Part shown: one piece after another, positions 2,523 through 62,222 of the stretch | Layout of the letters: the number at the start of each line of letters is the position of its first letter | Numbering within the stretch: the first letter of the stretch is position 1 | Made by a program: the position numbers and the translations under genes | The notes under the pieces: generated by a model | Told to the model about the DNA's origin: nothing | Database searches by the model: none | Seen by the model: only the letters and a program-made list of their open reading frames with translations | Source of the DNA: Clostridiales bacterium | Lineage (GTDB): Bacteria > Bacillota > Clostridia > Saccharofermentanales > DTU023 | Assembly: GCA_004556925.1 (NCBI GenBank) | Contig: SFFI01000013.1 | Span: 11,563-75,562 of the forward strand | DNA: 64,000 bases | Reading direction: 5' to 3'

Positions 2523-2546
2523 ACTATCTTCCTTAAAAAAGTTATT

Positions 2547-2892
2547 CCGAGAAAACCTGTAAGCCGGGTTCTGTCAGGGGCAATCATCTATCTAGGCCGG
2601 GGCTCTCACCCCAGCTCCAGCCACCTCCTTGAGACCTGCGGACCACAGTATATGTCTCGCCACGGTGTTGCTCCAGGTGGGGTTTGCAGGGCCAAGCTGT
2701 CTCCAGCTTGCCGGTGAGCTCTTACCTCGCCATTTCACCCTTACCAGGTTTAGCACCTGGCGGTATCTTTCTGTTGCACTTTCCTTAAAGTTGCCTTCAC
2801 CGGGAGTTACCCGGCACCCTTGTCCTATGGAGCCCGGACTTTCCTCACGGCCCAGCTTTCGCTAGGGCCCCGCGATTGCCCAGTTAACTCGG
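2547..2892 (-). ncRNA. rnpB: RNase P RNA, bacterial type A
   Basis: The reverse complement contains GAGGAAAGTCCGGGCTCCATAGG, GGTAAGGGTGAAA, GGTAAGAGC.CACC and the 3' ACAGAACCCGGCTTA. The P1 ends pair (CCGAG...CTCGG). Ends are good to about +/-10 nt. Confidence 0.9.
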
Positions 2893-43300: not shown

Positions 43301-43376
43301 TGGTGACCCTAAGGGGAATCGAACCCCTGATTCCGCCGTGAGAGGGCGGCGTCTTGAACCGCTTGACCATAGGGCC
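43301..43376 (-). tRNA. tRNA-Glu (anticodon CUC) with encoded CCA
   Basis: The reverse complement GGCCCTATGGTCAAGCGGTTCAAGACGCCGCCCTCTCACGGCGGAATCAGGGGTTCGATTCCCCTTAGGGTCACCA folds as a cloverleaf. The anticodon loop is CTCTCAC and the T-loop is GGTTCGATTCC. Confidence 0.9.
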
Positions 43377-55129: not shown

Positions 55130-55294
55130 TTATTTTCCAAACAAGTCCGCATGACTGCCATTGCGGTAGAGCATCAACACCAGCAATGAAGACTGAACTT
55201 CGTAAATCAAAAGCCAGTCAGGATCAATATGACACTCACGAGTTCCTTTATATTTTCCAGATAGATTATGGTCTCGAAAGTTTCTTAAGCTCAT
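55130..55294 (-). pseudogene. YafQ/RelE-family toxin remnant (C-terminal ~50 aa only)
   Basis: My translation: MSLRNFRDHNLSGKYKGTRECHIDPDWLLIYEVQSSLLVLMLYRNGSHADLFGK*. It matches the YafQ C-terminal half (from roughly residue 45 by eye). The N-terminal half is absent and the ORF overlaps the antitoxin 3' end by 29 nt. Confidence 0.6.
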
Positions 55295-55547
55295 CAATAC
55301 TATGATATCCTACTGCACTCGGATCAAAAGCAATGCGCCTTCCCTCTTCTATAGCTGCTGATGTCTTTGCATTCGGGACATCCAACTTTAAATCAAAGGG
55401 CAGACCATTTTCACGCACCGTCGCCCTAAGAAATAAATTTACAGCTGTAGTCATATTCATGCCAAGCTCAGAAAAAATAGTCTCAGCCTGTTTTTTAATA
55501 GTCGTATCGGTTCTAACATTCAAATTACTTGTAGCCATGACTATCAC
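55266..55547 (-). CDS. RelB/DinJ-family type II antitoxin
   Basis: MATSNLNVRTDTTIKKQAETIFSELGMNMTTAVNLFLRATVRENGLPFDL. The likely start is the Met at 55538. Confidence 0.85.
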   Translation of the reverse strand: MIVMATSNLNVRTDTTIKKQAETIFSELGMNMTTAVNLFLRATVRENGLPFDLKLDVPNAKTSAAIEEGRRIAFDPSAVGYHSIDELKKLSRP

Positions 55548-55679
55548 CTCCTAGGCAATTTTATCATAATAAAGCTACTAGCAACATAATATGTTGGCAT
55601 AAGCTTCATCATAGAAGATTTAAGGAAATATCCGTTTTGTCGTCCTTTTTACCTTCTTAGTTGGGTTCACCTTGAGATT

Positions 55680-55757
55680 CTACAAGCGTTTCTCCAAATC
55701 GAGCTTTCCATATAAAATACGCCTAACTTCCATGATACGTAATTTATAATCTTTCAT
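55680..55757 (-). pseudogene. RelE/ParE-family toxin remnant (25 codons; apparent internal deletion)
   Basis: The ATG overlaps the antitoxin end in the usual TA fashion. The product MKDYKLRIMEVRRILYGKLDLEKRL looks like a toxin N-terminus joined directly to a ParE/RelE C-terminal ...V.RILHG.RD motif. Confidence 0.45.
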
Positions 55758-56019
55758 TGTCTTTTATGCGCTCTTTCACTCTAGTAAAAACTTCGTCAGC
55801 ACAGTAAAGCTCAGGTATTATTTCTGCCATTCTATCTGCCTCATCTAGTCTTTCTTCTATGTCCTCGGTAAGTGCAGTATATTGCTCCAAACTCATAACA
55901 ACCATCGTCCCATAGCCGCTTTTTGTTAAATAAACAGGCGTACCTGATTTAACAATTTTCTCAATTTCCTTAAATCGGTTGCGTAAATCGGAAACAGGTC
56001 GAATTGTAATCATGTCCAT
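55744..56019 (-). CDS. Phd/YefM-family type II antitoxin
   Basis: ITIRPVSDLRNRFKEIEKIVKSGTPVYLTKSGYGTMVVMSLEQYTAL. Confidence 0.8.
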   Translation of the reverse strand: MDMITIRPVSDLRNRFKEIEKIVKSGTPVYLTKSGYGTMVVMSLEQYTALTEDIEERLDEADRMAEIIPELYCADEVFTRVKERIKDNERL

Positions 56020-56098
56020 TACCTCCCTAAGTGGCTTTATTTTGTCATAATTCCGCCATCAGAAACAGAAATATAATAGCGACTATCAAGGCTAAAAC

Positions 56099-56404
56099 TT
56101 GCCTCATCATAAAGGAGACCTTAGTCAATGCGATATTCGCCAACTGATTTTGACAACTGCCGGTAACCTCCCCGTGGTTATCAATAATCTTCTTAAAGAA
56201 GACCTCATCAGTAAACGCCCCCATGAAGCAGATGGCAGACGTCAGGTTTTATCCTTAACTTTAAAAGGAAGGAATCTCCTTGAAGAAGTATTTCCTAAGA
56301 ACCAGAAATGCATTGAAGATTGTTTCTCTGTTTGGACGGAAAAAGAAAAGGAAATGCTACATGCAGCTATGAAGAAATTTAGAAAGGAACACTATGAAAG
56401 CTAA
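56099..56404 (+). CDS. MarR-family wHTH regulator, apparently 5'-truncated (possible pseudogene)
   Basis: Only the wHTH and C-terminal helices are present (LILTTAGNLPVVINNLLKEDLISKRPHEADGRRQVLSLTLKGRNLLEEVFP). It has a TTG start immediately after an in-frame stop and is about 40 aa short of typical MarR. It overlaps the pirin start. Confidence 0.55.
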   Translation: MPHHKGDLSQCDIRQLILTTAGNLPVVINNLLKEDLISKRPHEADGRRQVLSLTLKGRNLLEEVFPKNQKCIEDCFSVWTEKEKEMLHAAMKKFRKEHYES

Positions 56405-57284: not shown

Positions 57285-57330
57285 AGAAAAAAGACGTAGC
57301 AGGATTTAGTTCTTGCTACGTCTCTTTTAT
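57285..57330. terminator. Bidirectional intrinsic terminator after the pirin gene
   Basis: AAAAAA-AGACGTAGCA-loop-TGCTACGTCT-CTTTTAT (10-bp stem). Confidence 0.75.
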
Positions 57331-57432
57331 GGCATCGTACATCAAAACGAATACAATCCACTCAGAAATATTGCTCGGGTGCATTGGGGTGCAAAATGAA
57401 AAACCAGGTGCAATTTGAACCCCTAGAGCACG
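57324..57432. repeat. Copy 1 of a ~105-bp direct repeat
   Basis: TTTTATGGCATCGTACAtCAAAACGAATACAATCCACTCAGAAATATTGCTCGGGTGCATTGGGGTGCAAAATGAAA... includes a 58-nt block identical to 60795-60903. Confidence 0.85.
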
Positions 57433-57469
57433 TCTTTCGATCTTAACTTGAGAGTGGTACCCTTCCAAA

Positions 57470-57652
57470 CTAAGATTTGCCTCTATCCCTTTTTGAAACG
57501 TGATACCTACTTCCACAACCTATACCAAAAAGCATAGAACCTATTATCCATGCATACTCGGTTTTCCCCGTTTTGTTGGACATATATATTGATAGAATAA
57601 GCACGATTCCTGAGATTACAGTTAATACTAACCACATGTTCTTTTTATTCAT
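57470..57652 (-). CDS. Small two-TM hypothetical protein (60 aa from MNKKNMW)
   Basis: GGGGGA Shine-Dalgarno 8 nt upstream of the ATG at 57652, two hydrophobic helices, and a position downstream of the ABC permease. Confidence 0.4.
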   Translation of the reverse strand: MNKKNMWLVLTVISGIVLILSIYMSNKTGKTEYAWIIGSMLFGIGCGSRYHVSKRDRGKS

Positions 57653-57714
57653 TTGTGAGTCCCCCAAGTTATAAGCAGAGCTCTCACCAACGAAACATTA
57701 GACCTAAAGGCTCA

Positions 57715-58350
57715 TCAAAATTCCCTTTTCTCATAGATAACTCTTGAACAAAAGTAGGAAATCCCGTTTACCAAGATGGCGGCGGCAGCCAAGATAAGGG
57801 CAAGGTAGCGACTATCCAGGTTAAATCCTGCCTGCAGCTTAGCCGCAAGCCACTCCTTATTAGAGGCTATACTGGAAAAAAAGGCAAAGGTGACAAAGTA
57901 GAGTCCGACAAAGATGAGCCGGGCTTTCGTTTCACCAAAACGATACATCAGGGGCAACTGGACAGCTGAGATAAAACTGGTCATGAGAAAGATTCCTGGA
58001 ACGAGTAAAATCCAGTCCAAGGCTAAGGGGTTGTTGCCCTTGGTGAGCCAAGGCATCATTAAAGCTAAGATGACGGCCAAAGTCGACATAAACCAAACAA
58101 TGACATAGCGACTCAAAACGATCGTTGACCTTTTAACAGGAGACGGTACGAGGTAGTGGTCAAGCCGGTCTTGGCTATCGGCACCAAAGAGCATACCCAG
58201 AATAATAACCGGTAGCAGGATAAAAAAGAGGGGTAAAAGGTAGATCTGATCTTCCTTATAAAAATAAAAAGCGATAACAGCTAGGATTACCAGCATCAAA
58301 AGCAAGACCTTTTTTAAGGCTATAAAATCTTTATAGAGCAAGGCTTTCAT
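57715..58350 (-). CDS. ABC-2-type transporter permease
   Basis: Start MKALLYKDFIALKK with AAGGAGG 6 nt upstream, inside the ATPase gene end; 6 TM helices. Confidence 0.7.
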   Translation of the reverse strand: MKALLYKDFIALKKVLLLMLVILAVIAFYFYKEDQIYLLPLFFILLPVIILGMLFGADSQDRLDHYLVPSPVKRSTIVLSRYVIVWFMSTLAVILALMMPWLTKGNNPLALDWILLVPGIFLMTSFISAVQLPLMYRFGETKARLIFVGLYFVTFAFFSSIASNKEWLAAKLQAGFNLDSRYLALILAAAAILVNGISYFCSRVIYEKREF

Positions 58351-59197
58351 TTTTGTCCTCCTTAATGGTGAACACCATAATGTCTTCGATACTAGCCTTA
58401 TCCAAACTGAGATCGGCCGGTACAAGATTACGCTTAACCAGGGCTTCTATACCAAATCGGTGCTTCCGCAAACCAACCACAGCCCCGGGATCAAGGGCTT
58501 GCAACTGGTCTTCCGTGAGAGAAGCAATCCCATATTCTTCAGCCAGACTGTCCTTGTTCTCCATAAAGAGCAATTCCCCCTTATGGATAAAGGCAATGTA
58601 ATCGGCTATTTTTTCTAAATCCGATAGAATGTGAGACGAGATAAAGACTGTATGGCTTTCGTCTTGGAGATAGTCCAATAAAATATCTAGAACATCGTCC
58701 CTGATAACAGGATCAAGCCCGCTTGTGGCCTCATCTAAAAGCAAAAGCTTTGCCCCATGAGAGAGGGCAACCGCCAGGCCGAGCTGCATCTTCATCCCTC
58801 GTGAAAGATCCTTTACCCGTCTTTTTTCAGGAAGGTTGAAGGACTGGATGAGCTTCTGAAAAGTATGATCCTGCCAGGCTTGGCCATAGAGCAAACCATG
58901 AAAGCGTTGCACGTTAGCCACGGTCATCGACCCGGGTAAAAACAGGTCATCAAAGACATAAGCAATGTCCTTCTTTTGTTCCGCTGTTATTTTCTCAAGC
59001 GGTTTGTCCAAGATCTTGATTTGGCCACTATCGGCCTCCATCAAGCCTAGTATGAGTTTAATCGTCGTACTCTTTCCTGCTCCATTCTCCCCAATGTATC
59101 CGACCACACAACCGGTCGGGACAGAAAAAGTGAGCGGTCCCAAGTGGAAGTCACCTAGCTTTTTGGTAACCCCCTTTAATTCGATCGCCTTAGTCAT
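58331..59197 (-). CDS. ABC transporter ATP-binding protein
   Basis: GENGAGKSTT Walker A, LSRGMKMQLG signature and LLLLDEATSGLD Walker B. Confidence 0.9.
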   Translation of the reverse strand: MTKAIELKGVTKKLGDFHLGPLTFSVPTGCVVGYIGENGAGKSTTIKLILGLMEADSGQIKILDKPLEKITAEQKKDIAYVFDDLFLPGSMTVANVQRFHGLLYGQAWQDHTFQKLIQSFNLPEKRRVKDLSRGMKMQLGLAVALSHGAKLLLLDEATSGLDPVIRDDVLDILLDYLQDESHTVFISSHILSDLEKIADYIAFIHKGELLFMENKDSLAEEYGIASLTEDQLQALDPGAVVGLRKHRFGIEALVKRNLVPADLSLDKASIEDIMVFTIKEDKNESLAL

Positions 59198-59567
59198 GAT
59201 CCTCCTCCAAATTATCCAGCATGCTCATCAAATCTTCCCGCGATAGGCCAAGGATTTTGGCATAGTCGAGAACAGCTGTCAGATTGTCCTCTATCTTCCT
59301 GAGGAGACTTTCCCTGACAAGCTCCTGGTTCTGGGGAGCAACAAAACTCCCTTTCCCCTGGACTGAATGGATAAAGCCATCCTTTTCGAGCTCGTCATAA
59401 GCCCGCTTAGTGGTGATAACACTCACCCTAAGTTCCTTAGCCAGAACACGGATCGAGGGCAGGGGCTCGTCAGCTCCCAGCTCTCCGTTCAGAATAGCAA
59501 ACTGGATTTGATTTTTTATTTGTAGGTAAATCGGATCATCACTCGAGTTTTTGATATGAATATTCAT
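59190..59567 (-). CDS. GntR-family regulator, short YtrA subfamily (125 aa)
   Basis: PIYLQIKNQIQFAILNGELGADEPLPSIRVLAKELRVSVITTKRAYDELEKDGFI; GGAGG SD before the Met at 59567. The longer track ORF start (59678) is unlikely. Confidence 0.85.
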   Translation of the reverse strand: MNIHIKNSSDDPIYLQIKNQIQFAILNGELGADEPLPSIRVLAKELRVSVITTKRAYDELEKDGFIHSVQGKGSFVAPQNQELVRESLLRKIEDNLTAVLDYAKILGLSREDLMSMLDNLEEDHD

Positions 59568-59708
59568 AAAAACCTCCGCTTGCCTACTGTGCATAGTGTA
59601 TATGAACAGTTTTCCATTGTCAATGCTTTTCAAGACTATGGAGGTTTGTTGAAGTGGCCATCTAGTTATCAAGGTCACCCAGCTAGCAAGTATTATTTAC
59701 TGTGATTT

Positions 59709-60050
59709 ATGCTTAAACAGCTCAAAACATTCGAAGAACAAGTCGCTATACTAAAGCAACACGGTTGCGTCATAGATGATGAGGAAACCTGTATTCGTGT
59801 ACTTGCTAAATTCGGGGCATTAGAAGCAATCGAGATTTCTCTAAAAACTCGTCTAGCCTATCTCCACGGACATCATTATGGCCCACTTGGTTATCTTGAT
59901 CAAAAATATGACGGACGATTTCCTATCTGGGTTATCACTGAGCTCTTCAGCTTCAGTCTGATTGATCACGTCAGCGTTCCTACAGGTGGTAAAAAATCAT
60001 TCATTTACCATCTGCGAAGCGGTGAGGCAAAAGAAATCACGCTGGAATAA
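59709..60050 (+). pseudogene. Abi_2 (AbiD/AbiF-like) abortive-infection gene remnant
   Basis: FEEQVAILKQHGCVIDDEE...IRVL resembles the Abi_2 N-terminus, and EISLKTRLAYL and PIWVITELFSF resemble internal blocks. The ORF is only 113 aa versus about 300, implying internal deletions. Confidence 0.55.
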
Positions 60051-60088
60051 TTCAAAAGTTTTCTCTTCAATCCTTACCGGAAGTAGTC

Positions 60089-60490
60089 CTACCAGATAAC
60101 AAAGCAGAAAGGGTGACCAACGGGGTCAATGAGCGTGATCCAATCATCTGTTCCTTTTTCATCATTGTGACCAAATTGTACTTCCGCTATCATAGCACCA
60201 CAGTCCAAAGCATGTTGGACAGCGGTTTTCATTTCTATCTGACTACTAACTTCAAAATCCAGGTGTGCCTGCTGCTGTTGAAACAATCTTTGTTCAGGCC
60301 AATTCGGGCGGTCATATATCTCGTTAAGTTGAATGAGAATTCTGCAACCTCCATTCGGTGAGGAAACACGGCCAACAGTCTTTTCATTAATAAAATCAAT
60401 ATTCCAGTTCAGAAGCTTTGCGTAAAATTCAGTTAAAAGTCGGACATCCGGACTATCCAAAACTACCGCATCAAGGACATAGGGCTTCAT
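60089..60490 (-). CDS. VOC/glyoxalase-family protein
   Basis: Size and pattern (VLDSPD...FYAKLL.W...HLDFEV...DP.GHPFC) are typical of glyoxalase-like VOC proteins. Confidence 0.75.
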   Translation of the reverse strand: MKPYVLDAVVLDSPDVRLLTEFYAKLLNWNIDFINEKTVGRVSSPNGGCRILIQLNEIYDRPNWPEQRLFQQQQAHLDFEVSSQIEMKTAVQHALDCGAMIAEVQFGHNDEKGTDDWITLIDPVGHPFCFVIW

Positions 60491-60562
60491 ATCATTCTCC
60501 TTCTAGAAAATAAATAGCTACACATCTACAACTGATTTATAAATCCTACAGCCAATAATACC

Positions 60563-60630
60563 AGCTACACGAAAATCATAATAGCTACACGAAACTAAAC
60601 AGACGATACGAAACTCCGAGTTTCGTGTAG
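60563..60630. promoter_or_regulatory. Direct plus inverted AGCTACACGAAA repeats upstream of the VOC gene
   Basis: AGCTACACGAAA occurs at 60563 and 60583 (20-bp period). CTACACGAAACT (60585-60596) is inverted as AGTTTCGTGTAG (60619-60630). Confidence 0.5.
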
Positions 60631-60755
60631 TTGGTTTCACGAGCAAATAAAAGGGTGCAGAAAACAGCCAAACAATCAGCTATTAAGCCTAAATTGCACC
60701 CTTTCGTTTATTTAAGGGTTTCCTGAAAGCTTTGCCCTGTCAGCATTTTAAGACA

Positions 60756-60800
60756 CAAAAAAGGACGACTCAGGATTGTATCCGTTTGGTCGTCCTTTTA
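60756..60800. terminator. Terminator-like hairpin abutting repeat copy 2
   Basis: AAAAAA-AGGACGAC-loop-GTCGTCCT-TTTTAT; same architecture as 57285-57330 but a different stem sequence. Confidence 0.6.
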
Positions 60801-60903
60801 TGGCATCGTACAACAAAACGAATACAATCCACTCAGAAATATTGCTCGGGTGCATTGGGGTGCAAAATGAAAGACTGGGTGCAGTTTAAACCCTTAGGTG
60901 CGT
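60795..60903. repeat. Copy 2 of the ~105-bp direct repeat
   Basis: See 57324-57432. About 9-12 mismatches, clustered at the distal end. Confidence 0.85.
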
Positions 60904-61138
60904 GAATCTTTCCGCTCCCATATATCCATTTAGCATAGAATACTGGGATGTCATTTCATAATGCACCAAGAGCCTCCTTTTCGATATCGTCTCTGACCAC
61001 ATAAATATATAAAAGCACAGGACAATGCGGACCACAACTCTTTTATGAAGCTCCTAAATCATTACACTTCTAATGAACGTTTAATTACTTAATTTTTAAA
61101 ATCAAGCAGTCAGTCTCCATGTGTATTAAGAGGTACCG

Positions 61139-62020
61139 TCAATAGATTCCATAAGAGAGTCCAAAAGGCATAAACCCTCGCATAAAATTGATCTCTGTTC
61201 GTTTCTCTTTTTGAAATAAAGAAGTTTCCAACTTTTTCCAACCCGCAAATTCTGCCCCATTATCTACCATGATTGTTTTGAATTTCTCTCGAAAAGCTCT
61301 CGTGCCAAGCTGCCGTTCAAGAGAATTCAGTTTCCGTAAGACCGCTTCCTGTGTTTGGCGACCAATCTTCAATAAGATACTCTCCCGACTTAAACGATCA
61401 ACCAGTGTTAAGAGACAGGTTCGATCAGCTTTCACTGACTCAATACAGTCCATCTCCCAGTGTCCTGTTTCTAAACGTTCTTGTGCTTCTTTGGGTCGCT
61501 GATCAATTCGCTTCTTATCCGGTGTGGATAGGCGTTTTTCTAGCCTCCGGTACCGTCGTTTCGGCTTTGCTCCTTTCCGTGGAAAATCCCTGCTTGTCAC
61601 ATGTAAAAAGACTTCTTTCTCAAAATAATGATAGATGGTACGAGCACAAAGTCTGGTGGCTGTTGGTCAGCCTTGTTTCTCAAAATGCATCACAATAGCT
61701 GTCGGAGAATATCTTAATTCCCCAAACGAAACCATTGCTTTCCCCAGTAGCATTTCTTCAATCGTTTGTGCAAGTTGATGATCTTGACCAATTTTTAAGG
61801 ATGGCCCTTTCTTCTCCCAATTCTTCTTCACGTTACTTTGAGCTACATAAGAAGAGTAGGCTTGATACGTTGTTAAATCACTTGCTTGTTGCTTGACCAT
61901 ACCACGTTTGAGTTCGCGGCTTAATGTTGCTTCACTCCAGCCTAGCTGGCGCGCTAATTCTTTTTGGGTGTACCGTTCTTTCTGACTGCGTTTTAGATTT
62001 TGATTATAAAGATATTCCAA
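61139..62020 (-). mobile_element. IS30-family transposase pseudogene (frameshifted and 3'-truncated)
   Basis: The N-terminal HTH ORF (YTQKELARQLGWSEATLSRELKRG) is separated from the catalytic-core ORF (GHWEMDCI...LLTLVDRLSR...IMVDNGAEF). The region after the second Asp is degenerate and the DDE Glu region is missing. Confidence 0.8.
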
Positions 62021-62171
62021 TATTTTCCGATCTTCTAATCCTTAATGCTGACCTAGTTCCTTTTCCTGCCACAATTTAAATGGCTCAAAACGATTCTCCT
62101 TTGTTTGTTTTTTCCAATAACATTGTACAGGATTGTGGAGAGCCTTTTTATTTCAGTTTATTTTACAACTC

Positions 62172-62222
62172 GCCAAAACCGTTCCGGTTTATCAGCGATA
62201 AACAACTTGGAACGGTTTTATT
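62172..62222 (-). terminator. Intrinsic terminator downstream of the hydrogenase gene
   Basis: AAACCGTTCC (62176-62185) / GGAACGGTTT (62209-62218) form a 10-bp stem, with T-rich flanks on both strands. Confidence 0.6.

Follow-up and report, generated by a model that had tools for sequence, protein, structure and literature searches.

Attachment (att) sites of large serine recombinases (LSRs), as known from phiC31, Bxb1, TP901-1 and A118, are imperfect dyads of ~50–60 bp centred on a 2-bp crossover, and homology between sites switches partner exactly at this central dinucleotide. The recombinases carry Resolvase, Recombinase and zinc-ribbon domains, and in the phage the site is flanked by lysis genes on one side and integrase genes on the other. 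Arm repeats are dispensable for minimal serine-integrase sites, and the standard mechanism gives them no role. Pairs of serine recombinase genes of unequal size occur in SCC (CcrA/CcrB) and in the Dehalococcoides ssrA islands (DsiA/DsiB; PMC3146451), which target rlmH or the tmRNA gene, both conserved, at the 3' end and form tandem arrays, some members of which are pseudo-elements without a recombinase, flanked by direct repeats, the tandem islands at the Dehalococcoides tmRNA gene having a CcrB-like serine recombinase. Integrated elements also decay and then accrete into tandem arrays in the ICESt1/ICESt3 model, as CIMEs (reviewed in PMC5704250). Here we describe a locus with likenesses to all of these systems, at which a pair of direct repeats can with good confidence be read as att-site scars, left where several LSR prophages would have piled up and then decayed.

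The window (the whole 64-kb stretch of DNA that was analysed) contains the two repeats on the plus strand, reported at 57324..57432 (copy 1) and 60795..60903 (copy 2). The two repeats of ~105 bp given in the preliminary description are real: 57324-57426 and 60795-60897 align without gaps over 103 nt at 93% identity, weaker gapped similarity runs on to ~57445/60915, and core probes of 51 nt and 21 nt each occur exactly twice in the window, where shuffles expect none. The identical core holds as an uninterrupted run, its length being 59 nt (57343-57401 = 60814-60872) and not the 58 nt given before. A hairpin stands directly before each copy on the plus strand: h1 (57287..57329) is a 13-pair terminator-like fold (stem AGACGTAGCA.../...TGCTACGTCT, 57292-57323), and h2 (60764..60800) is a predicted fold on an inverted repeat (stem GGACGAC/GTCGTCC, span 60764-60796), both being followed by CTTTTATGGCATCG. 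The 5' halves of h1 and h2 align in register (AAAAA-GACG-...-CAGGATT), so the repeat starts ~40 nt to the left of the position first reported. Hairpins with differing stems are present as described, but they are homologous and belong to the opposite att arm rather than being two independent terminators. The locus is present in only two other assemblies, both of which look the same as the window.

Relatives were found by a scan of viral contigs using motifs taken from the repeat, and they separate two arms. The arm formed by the repeat itself, P-right, is present in L016, L017, L018 and L019, where it sits directly outside endolysin, holin and tail genes, in keeping with the position of the site in LSR phages. 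The other arm, P-left, occurs in L016, L017, L025, L036 and L040, and in the window at 60554..60763 on the plus strand (60554-60800 including the hairpin), where it is recognised by 77-79% identity over 220-320 nt to L017, L025 and L036 and by 69% identity to the L016A arm. In L025 and L036 two tandem genes, encoding proteins of 427-430 and 526-539 aa, lie immediately upstream of P-left, and each product combines Resolvase, Recombinase and Zn_ribbon_recom domains, which makes it an LSR. L040 has the same gene pair followed by a different, shorter arm, which recurs as the hairpin to the left of L016B, and is flanked by a P-left of the window type; upstream of P-left in L016 and L017 there are only gene fragments. 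The P-left arm of L036 ends at the 3' CCA of a tRNA-Asn gene and that of L025 at the 3' end of a tRNA-Cys gene, the latter read by eye because the contig end cuts the gene and ARAGORN made no call. In these intact relatives the TG of P-left is the CA of the CCA encoded by the tRNA gene. As opposed to the phiC31/Bxb1-type models, which have one recombinase gene, the family has two in tandem, and its target is an encoded tRNA CCA end, in at least two different tRNAs.

Both repeats very probably represent the same arm, P-right, of an LSR-prophage attachment site, with the junction included in copy 1 as reported, judging from the way the sequences align around a single dinucleotide. The full site measures ~58 bp and consists of a left half-site (GGATTGTATCCGTTTTGTCGTCCTTTTA), which is the loop plus 3' arm of the terminator-like hairpin that ends P-left, a central TG, and a right half-site (GCATCnTACnnCAAAACGAATACAATCC) formed by the initial ~28 nt of the reported repeat. 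At copy 2 these parts are the P-left half-site GGATTGTATCCGTTTGGTCGTCCTTTTA (60773-60800, loop and 3' arm of h2), TG at 60801..60802 and the P-right half-site at 60803..60830, all on the plus strand; together they form a 58-bp imperfect dyad (60773-60830, arms 60773-60793 and 60810-60830) centred exactly on TG. At copy 1 the putative crossover TG is at 57330..57331 and is followed by the P-right half-site GCATCGTACATCAAAACGAATACAATCC (57332..57359, +), a candidate recombinase-binding half that mirrors the left half-site GGATTGTATCCGTTTTG and is conserved in L016B, L017, L018, L019 and L003. The dyad matches at 20 of 30 positions in copy 2 and 22/30 in L017, where TG is again the geometric centre, and has decayed to 12/30 in copy 1. 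When ten junctions were aligned, flanks of the P-left type and flanks of the P-right type or of the host switched partner exactly at one TG, and only this TG was common to all. The homologies, the contexts of the genes, the shared breakpoint and the dyad are observed directly; TG would be the actual crossover point. On present alignments the dyad around it is the expected design of a serine-integrase attP. Since the common breakpoint falls at TG and TG is the dyad centre, copy 2 together with 60554-60800 appears to be an attP-like composite junction between tandem elements.

Unlike phiC31/Bxb1-type sites, those of the family have their left half-site within a terminator hairpin. Hairpins of the h2 type recur in L017, L025, L036 and L040, with a paired stem change from GACGAC/GTCGTC to GACAAC/GTTGTC; the stem is maintained by such paired changes and the loop, which is the half-site, is conserved. 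Hairpin h1 is of the P-left type and shares the stem ACGTAG.../CTACGTC with the P-left hairpin of L016A, its left half-site being the decayed one; it is still a predicted A-tract/stem/T-tract terminator behind the pirin gene. The hairpin may have been retained for transcription termination.

Between the two TGs lies a 3.4-kb block, and its parts stand in the layout of an integrated element: P-right (57332...), cargo genes, an LSR remnant (59955-60050, +) and P-left (60554-60800). The remnant corresponds to the last ~30 codons of the second LSR gene (...SLIDHVSVP...FIYHLRSGEAKEITLE, then stop); it was matched in tblastn by the recombinases of L036 and L025 (E 6e-7 and 3e-6), has 75% DNA identity to L017 1588-1671, and lies at the same place and in the same orientation with respect to P-left as do the genes in L025 and L036. 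A tblastn search of the 64 kb with both recombinases returned only this C-terminal remnant and no intact LSR gene. The gene content listed in the preliminary description, with an IS30 remnant after copy 2, was borne out by ORFs and Pfam: a 65-aa membrane protein, an ABC-2 permease, an ABC ATPase and a GntR/YtrA-type regulator (57470..59570, minus strand) and a VOC/Glyoxalase_6 gene (60089..60490, minus strand). Its 'Abi_2 remnant' is a different matter, as ORF 59709-60050 is a chimera of an Abi_2 fragment fused to the ~30 codons of the LSR C-terminus. By comparison of spacing with L017, L025 and L036, the VOC gene was inserted between the recombinase stop codon and P-left. The 3.4-kb block, which has att sites of the family at its ends, in the right order and orientation, and no recombinase of its own, is by these features a decayed element of the cis-mobilizable type. 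As the half-site of copy 1 has decayed, the block is probably fixed, and the same 12/30 left half-site argues against its excision in trans.

Two further remains flank the block. To its left, 55629..55649 (+) carries the last 21 nt of a P-left arm (TATCCGTTTTGTCGTCCTTTT), identical at 21/21 positions to the P-left ends of L036 and L040 and a direct repeat of 60779-60799; this third att scar has neither TG nor the remainder of the site. To its right, where the interior of the next element would be expected, are 249 nt of unassigned sequence at 60903-61151 and then an IS30-family remnant (61152..62176, minus strand; Pfam HTH_38 and rve), frameshifted and 3'-truncated, and no element is recognisable to the right of copy 2.

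In the mechanism that we propose, copy 2 would be P-left/TG/P-right, the junction expected between two tandem integrated elements, and copy 1 would be a junction of the same type, in which mutation has turned the left half-site into a longer, plain terminator after the pirin gene. The array may have arisen by successive integration beside a tRNA gene that has since been lost. Textbook behaviour does not account for the route to P-left/TG/P-right, as canonical serine integrases act only on attP paired with attB. Other observations also count against att-site scars: neither end of the array in the window has a tRNA gene or fragment, the sole tRNA being at 43304-43376; at the odd junction L016A, P-left is joined to the start of a tape-measure gene and not to a tRNA; and the family is a small one, comprising about 10 loci across the collections searched.

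The reading of the repeats as two paralogous ~100-nt RNAs on the minus strand, or as a conserved 3' UTR or leader, each with its own intrinsic terminator, draws on the conserved block lying directly upstream of hairpin and U-tract in every copy. Read in this direction in the phages, the block closes the late (lysis) operon at its 3' end and is therefore probably transcribed, and fold z-scores of -4.2 and -2.2 were obtained. These z-scores stem from the terminators, however, and a covariance search of the repeats against Rfam gave no family match, be it at the gathering score or even at E<10. The only structure that RNAalifold recovered from six copies was the att dyad; it contained 0 compensatory pairs, and its covariation term was unfavourable. 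No conserved promoter lies upstream on the minus strand, as had already been noted, no gene follows copy 1 on that strand, and the mirroring of the conserved half-site across TG is a property of the DNA that explains the conservation. We therefore consider an RNA function very unlikely.

A plain segmental duplication or gene conversion in a junk region, without site-specific function, is suggested by the 93% identity and the 59-nt identical run, which have the look of a recent event, and by a region full of remnants. Against it, unrelated genomes and phages carry this same arm, in every case with the same junction nucleotide and a conserved dyad partner, and inward of the two copies the sequences bear no relation to each other. 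We give it little chance as an explanation, but it does not exclude att-site scars, and conversion between the two arms may well account for their high identity.

The arms carry further motifs outside the ~58-bp site. The three GGTGCA hexamers reported for copy 1 were confirmed at 57378, 57388 and 57407 (57378..57412, +), i.e. at +48, +58 and +77 from TG, and copy 2 has them at 60849, 60859 and 60878 (60849..60883, +); those at +48/+58 are conserved in two diverged lineages, and the hexamer is not enriched window-wide (26 observed against ~27 expected). P-left has ACACGAAA-type repeats at 60566, 60586 and 60605 with an inverted copy at 60621, and GGGTGCA at 60653 with an inverted TGCACCC at 60695. 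Unlike in minimal serine-integrase sites, such repeats reach ~80 bp into the right arm and ~250 bp into the left, and the conserved GGTGCA and ACACGAAA repeats, being unusual for serine-integrase sites, weigh against an LSR origin. They could instead be binding sites of a transposase or integrase at Mu-like transposable phage ends or tyrosine-integrase arm sites: subterminal repeats are found in both arms, the ACACGAAA/TTTCGTGT motif presumably resembles MuA-site sequences, which we take as a lead only, and GGTGCA at +48/+58/+77 resembles the layout of the lambda P' arm. Yet neither a Mu-type DDE transposase nor a tyrosine integrase was seen beside the arms at any locus, the adjacent genes being LSRs in L025 and L036 and mere fragments upstream of P-left in L016 and L017. 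Insertion is not random but takes place at a single defined dinucleotide at the CCA end of a tRNA, and the dyad of the site is designed like that of serine-integrase att sites, all of which renders a Mu-like or tyrosine-type origin scarcely probable. The boundaries of an integrated cassette proposed in the preliminary description are thus upheld in substance, as att arms in an integrated-element layout; its phased hexamers are not the recombinase recognition site, which would be made up of the loop and 3' arm of the hairpin and the initial ~28 nt of the repeat.

An origin of the repeat from the adjacent IS30-family element, as its terminus (transposase 3' end plus inverted repeat) with copy 1 as a solo end, has a negligible probability: copy 2 lies ~250 nt from the IS30 remnant, roughly where an intact transposase gene would end, and some IS30 members target hairpins, but the intact IS30 relative in L011 (89% aa identity) aligns with the window only from ~62176 to ~61152, its true 3' end and flank have no similarity to the repeat, and the repeat relatives in L003 and L016-L019 have no IS30 nearby, so that the remnant is unrelated to the repeat and an IS terminus as a trivial origin of the core is refuted.

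An SCC-type element (CcrA/CcrB/CcrC) was likewise rejected. The recombinases of the relatives give only weak matches to the CcrB, CcrA and CcrC models, below the NCBIfam equivalog cut-offs of 700-900 bits (CcrB, 138 and 125 bits against 900; CcrA, 71 and 61 bits against 700), and, as opposed to SCC and the ssrA islands, the targets are tRNA genes and the elements, being phages, carry lysis and tail genes. With CIMEs the locus would share a tandem array that grew as elements integrated one after another, site-specifically, at a target gene's end; the described cases mostly involve tyrosine integrases and conjugative elements (PMC5704250), whereas here the recombinases are of the serine type and the intact relatives are prophages or satellite-like elements. 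Taken together, our comparisons indicate that the family is one of temperate phages and related integrative elements that integrate with paired LSRs, and the repeat pair would be an ordinary mobile-element scar with a few unusual details.

The two ~105-bp direct repeats that bracket the 3.4-kb block, copy 1 (57324-57432) and copy 2 (60795-60903), represent a familiar kind of feature, the scar left at an att site by serine-recombinase elements whose tandem array has decayed, and the element family itself seems undescribed. The two copies are real: 57324-57426 and 60795-60897 align without gaps over 103 nt at 93% identity, their longest identical stretch measures 59 nt (57343-57401, equal to 60814-60872), and probes from the repeat core occurred twice each in the 64-kb window and never in shuffled sequence. 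A motif search bore out the three GGTGCA hexamers of copy 1 (57378, 57388 and 57407) and located hexamers at equivalent positions in copy 2. An A-tract, a hairpin and a T-tract precede both copies, with CTTTTATGGCATCG common to the two, as the preliminary description had stated, but one correction is needed to its account of two different terminator hairpins: the hairpins can be aligned in register over their 5' halves (AAAAA-GACG-...-CAGGATT) and are diverged descendants of a single ancestral hairpin.

For relatives, an exact 20-mer from the repeat core was scanned against 185,579 species genomes and against metagenome collections. The metagenomes returned chance matches only, and the genomes yielded one real relative, L003, a Clostridia MAG. 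Loci L004-L010 were judged to be chance matches of these 20-mer scans: three (L004, L009 and L010) are the same contig and lie inside a methyltransferase coding sequence, L005-L007 all fall on a single Bacteroidetes-like gene start, and L008 is an isolated match. L003 has two blocks in common with the window, CAAAAACGAATACAAT and GGGTGCATTGGGGTGCAAAA, joined by a linker 21 nt longer than that of the window, and its arm adjoins a hairpin with a third stem sequence. We note that, in L003 (22-858 and 2527-4185), a leucine-rich-repeat protein gene adjoins this arm and that a gene lying ~3.4 kb beyond it was read by eye as having an ArdC-type antirestriction-like N-terminus. The arm may occur on conjugative elements too, with a host of ~60% G+C in the case of L003. 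The gapped pattern formed by the two common blocks matched four viral contigs (L016, L017, L018 and L019), and later patterns added L025, L036 and L040. A scan with a degenerate pattern of the arm opposite the repeat (P-left; 60554-60800 in the window, hairpin included) gave mostly chance matches besides L016 and L017, which had already been found, only L025 and L036 being both new and real. Plasmids and phages, searched by blastn with the repeat and the IS region, contained no match.

The arm containing the repeat (P-right) lies, in L016-L019, directly outside prophage late genes (tape measure, tail proteins, holin, endolysin and a small ORF). The match of L017 to 60587-60901 of the window (77% identity over 319 nt) extends past the repeat, so the unit under conservation exceeds the repeat; the whole stretch between the AGCTACACGAAA repeats at 60560 and the hairpin, both included, belongs to it. 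In L025 and L036, two tandem large serine recombinase (LSR) genes (427-430 and 526-539 aa), each encoding Resolvase, Recombinase and Zn_ribbon_recom domains, are followed by P-left. The same gene pair in L040 is followed by a different, shorter arm, and upstream of P-left in L016 and L017 there are gene fragments only. The C-terminus of the longer recombinase reads ...SL(I/V)D(H/Y)VSVP...FHLR.G..KEI.L. Past the hairpin, P-left of L036 continues into the 3' CCA of a tRNA-Asn, and that of L025 into a tRNA-Cys-like 3' end (identified by eye, cut at the contig end and with no ARAGORN call); near-identical P-left arms adjoin these two different tRNA genes (L036 7-82 and L025 3988-4038). The T-loop sequence GATTCGAAC lies 14 nt from the inferred crossover dinucleotide, TG, in both tRNA flanks, and the phage right half-site carries CGAATACAATCC at about the same distance, which suggests that the recombinases would recognise generic features of tRNA 3' ends.

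Large serine recombinase att sites are defined by an imperfect dyad of ~50-60 bp around a central 2-bp crossover. We aligned ten junctions on the TG (57330-57331 in copy 1; 60801-60802 in copy 2), namely both window copies, L003, L017, L018, L025, L036, L040 and the two junctions of L016 (L016A and L016B). The sequence to the left of TG is of P-left type in the window copies, L017, L025, L036, L040 and L016A and a different one in L016B, L018 and L003; that to the right is of P-right type in the window copies, L017, L016B, L018 and L003, and otherwise a tRNA (L025 and L036), a different arm (L040) or a tape-measure gene (L016A). The sole sequence common to all ten is TG, which at the tRNA junctions corresponds to the CA of the encoded CCA. 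The inverted repeat of copy 2 (60773-60793 and 60810-60830) is centred between 60801 and 60802, that is, on the TG, and 20 of 30 dyad positions are mirrored in this copy, compared with 22 of 30 in L017. Right-arm homology among copy 1, copy 2 and L017 stops together near +100 from TG, and the right arm behaves as a ~100-nt module. In L016 (1283-1880), where an IS256-family transposase fragment precedes the P-left arm, P-left meets the start codon of the tape-measure gene at TG (TTTTA-TG-GCTGAT); this junction could reflect pseudo-site integration inside another prophage, or an inversion. A promoter-like pair, (A/T)TGGCA and TACAAT spaced by 17 nt, lies on the plus strand of the right half-site (57329-57357 and 60800-60828). 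Its -35-like element overlaps the crossover TG; the junctions with P-left have ATGGCA here, and L016B and L018 have the better-matching TTGGCA. Transcription from the pair would enter the element antisense to the late genes, and the pair may be a by-product of the half-site sequence.

Copy 2, with P-left, TG and P-right in succession, is the junction expected where two elements have integrated in tandem, or on a circle after excision. Copy 1 shares the right half with it; the left half of copy 1 retains GGATT at the proper distance, 28 nt from TG, and has otherwise turned into a longer perfect stem (12 of 30 dyad positions matching), so that it now resembles a plain bidirectional terminator following the pirin gene. 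From one TG to the other come P-right, cargo (a 65-aa membrane protein, an ABC-2 permease, an ABC ATPase and a GntR), recombinase tail, inserted VOC gene and P-left. An integrated element of the family that has lost its phage and recombination genes has this order. The earlier suggestion that the repeats are att-like cassette boundaries is right in substance. Exactly the C-terminal recombinase tail given above is kept at 59955-60050, where it lies upstream of P-left and on the expected strand. The ORF to which it belongs (59709-60050, plus strand), previously called an Abi_2 remnant, does match Abi_2 over residues 35-66 but is a chimera, its last ~30 residues being an LSR C-terminus. Relative to L017, L025 and L036, a VOC/Glyoxalase_6 gene with its flanks (60051-60553) is inserted between the recombinase stop and P-left. 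No intact recombinase gene lies within the 64 kb, and no tRNA gene is left at either end of the array.

At 55629-55649 lies a third and older att scar, a 21-nt fragment (TATCCGTTTTGTCGTCCTTTT) that matches the terminal P-left half-site of both L036 and L040 at every position, and the array therefore once reached further left, at least 1.7 kb beyond copy 1. This scar sits between two toxin-antitoxin-like modules; small ORF pairs of this kind occupy 55130-56019, with RelB/DinJ-like and Phd/YefM-like antitoxins recognised by eye. A second ABC-permease remnant at 56045-56224, considered on account of a direct repeat (D5), was set aside as lacking protein-level support. To the right of copy 2, as far as the IS30 copy, 249 nt (60903-61151) matched none of the fetched loci; within this stretch, a strong Shine-Dalgarno sequence (AAAGGAGG) stands ahead of a 26-codon ORF.

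Tandem arrangement recurs in L040 (IMGVR_UViG_3300049647_001069), a 14.1-kb element encoding a capsid, a D5-type primase, a DNA methylase, a ThsB-like TIR defence protein and two serine recombinases, which looks like a phage satellite because tail and lysis genes are absent among the ORFs scanned. One of its flanks is a window-type P-left and its other end is its own, different short arm; the seemingly foreign hairpin to the left of P-right in L016 is this same short arm. L040 is integrated in tandem behind a window-type element. The tandem arrays of the family match the published pattern in which integrated elements decay and then accrete (PMC5704250), and also the serine-recombinase islands arrayed in tandem at the tmRNA gene of Dehalococcoides (PMC3146451).

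The preliminary description had also offered a second reading, in which the repeats are two minus-strand RNAs of ~100 nt, each with its own terminator. The stems do vary in a compensatory manner, as it had claimed: paired substitutions distinguish the P-left copies (GACGAC/GTCGTC in L036 and L040, GACAAC/GTTGTC in L017 and L025, GGACGAC/GTCGTCC in the window and GAACGTAGA/TCTACGTCC in L016A), and the loop with the half-site is constant. The hairpin would be kept because, after integration directly behind a tRNA CCA, it would substitute for the terminator of that tRNA, and it would also halt transcription arriving from the recombinase genes. In phages, the minus strand of the arm probably forms part of the late-operon transcript, at its tail. 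The reading as small RNAs is not supported, and no evidence of a structured or independent RNA came up: the region has no Rfam match at gathering score or E<10, RNAalifold on six copies recovered the att dyad only (0 compensatory pairs, with an unfavourable covariation term), and no conserved minus-strand promoter was found. Elsewhere in the window, a class A bacterial RNase P RNA lies at 2544-2891 (minus strand, 282 bits). A riboswitch or attenuator was considered because the terminator loop of copy 2 is complementary to the repeat, as an antiterminator might be; this complementarity is absent from copy 1 and L003, and the att dyad explains it better.

A trivial origin as an IS terminus was examined on the IS30 copy at 61152-62176 (minus strand), which is frameshifted and ends at ~61152 inside the catalytic domain, its left end and 5' part being intact. 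An intact relative (P0001, 89% identical; L011, 2915-4300) shares ~92% DNA identity with it, from the IS left end (~62176) to ~61152 only. The repeat is not an IS30 terminus, because the true 3' end of the intact IS is unrelated to it. Window G+C is 49%, and an [FeFe]-hydrogenase operon runs from 62248 onward; taken with the class A RNase P RNA, these features point to a Clostridia-like anaerobe represented by metagenomes alone (ENA ERZ27309548, Logan SRR9218167). A Mu-like end, prompted by TTTCGTGT repeats, was rejected, as serine recombinase genes adjoin the arms and the elements insert at a specific site. A small ORF (MHP...IVFV, in frame between the window and L003) was discarded, having no ribosome-binding site and losing its frame in the other relatives.

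The arm repeats are the one feature that current serine-integrase models fail to predict; minimal serine-integrase sites are not known to need any of them. Two diverged lineages that differ in the intervening bases both have GGTGCA at +48 and +58 relative to TG, and L003 has it at +69/+79; the left arm carries GGGTGCA at -147 with an inverted copy at -106. The left arm bears repeats of ACACGAAA type in the window, L016A, L017, L025 and L036; in L016B and L018 it is the right arm that has them, in inverted orientation. It seems to us rather unlikely, yet conceivable, that the family combines an extended att site bearing accessory arms with generic recognition of tRNA 3' ends by its recombinases. 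The GGGTGCA repeats (+48/+58/+77 on the right; -147 and, inverted, -106 on the left) and those of ACACGAAA type may bind a putative accessory or regulatory protein, for which a directionality factor or a small sigma-like HTH/zinc protein whose gene precedes those of the recombinases (3475-3864 in L036) could be a candidate, and which may govern integration and excision by analogy with the arm-type sites of tyrosine integrases. Recognition of the T-loop plus the encoded CCA may in turn permit entry into different tRNA genes and tandem stacking.

Taken together, the puzzle of a repeat joined to a hairpin resolves as a scar of site-specific integration, and the window from 55.6 to 61.2 kb is a graveyard of decayed integrated elements, not a regulated operon or an RNA locus. 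The family offers a ~58-bp site with a predicted crossover, natural targets at tRNA CCA ends and a two-gene serine-recombinase system, which may be of interest to those mining recombinases for genome-engineering tools.
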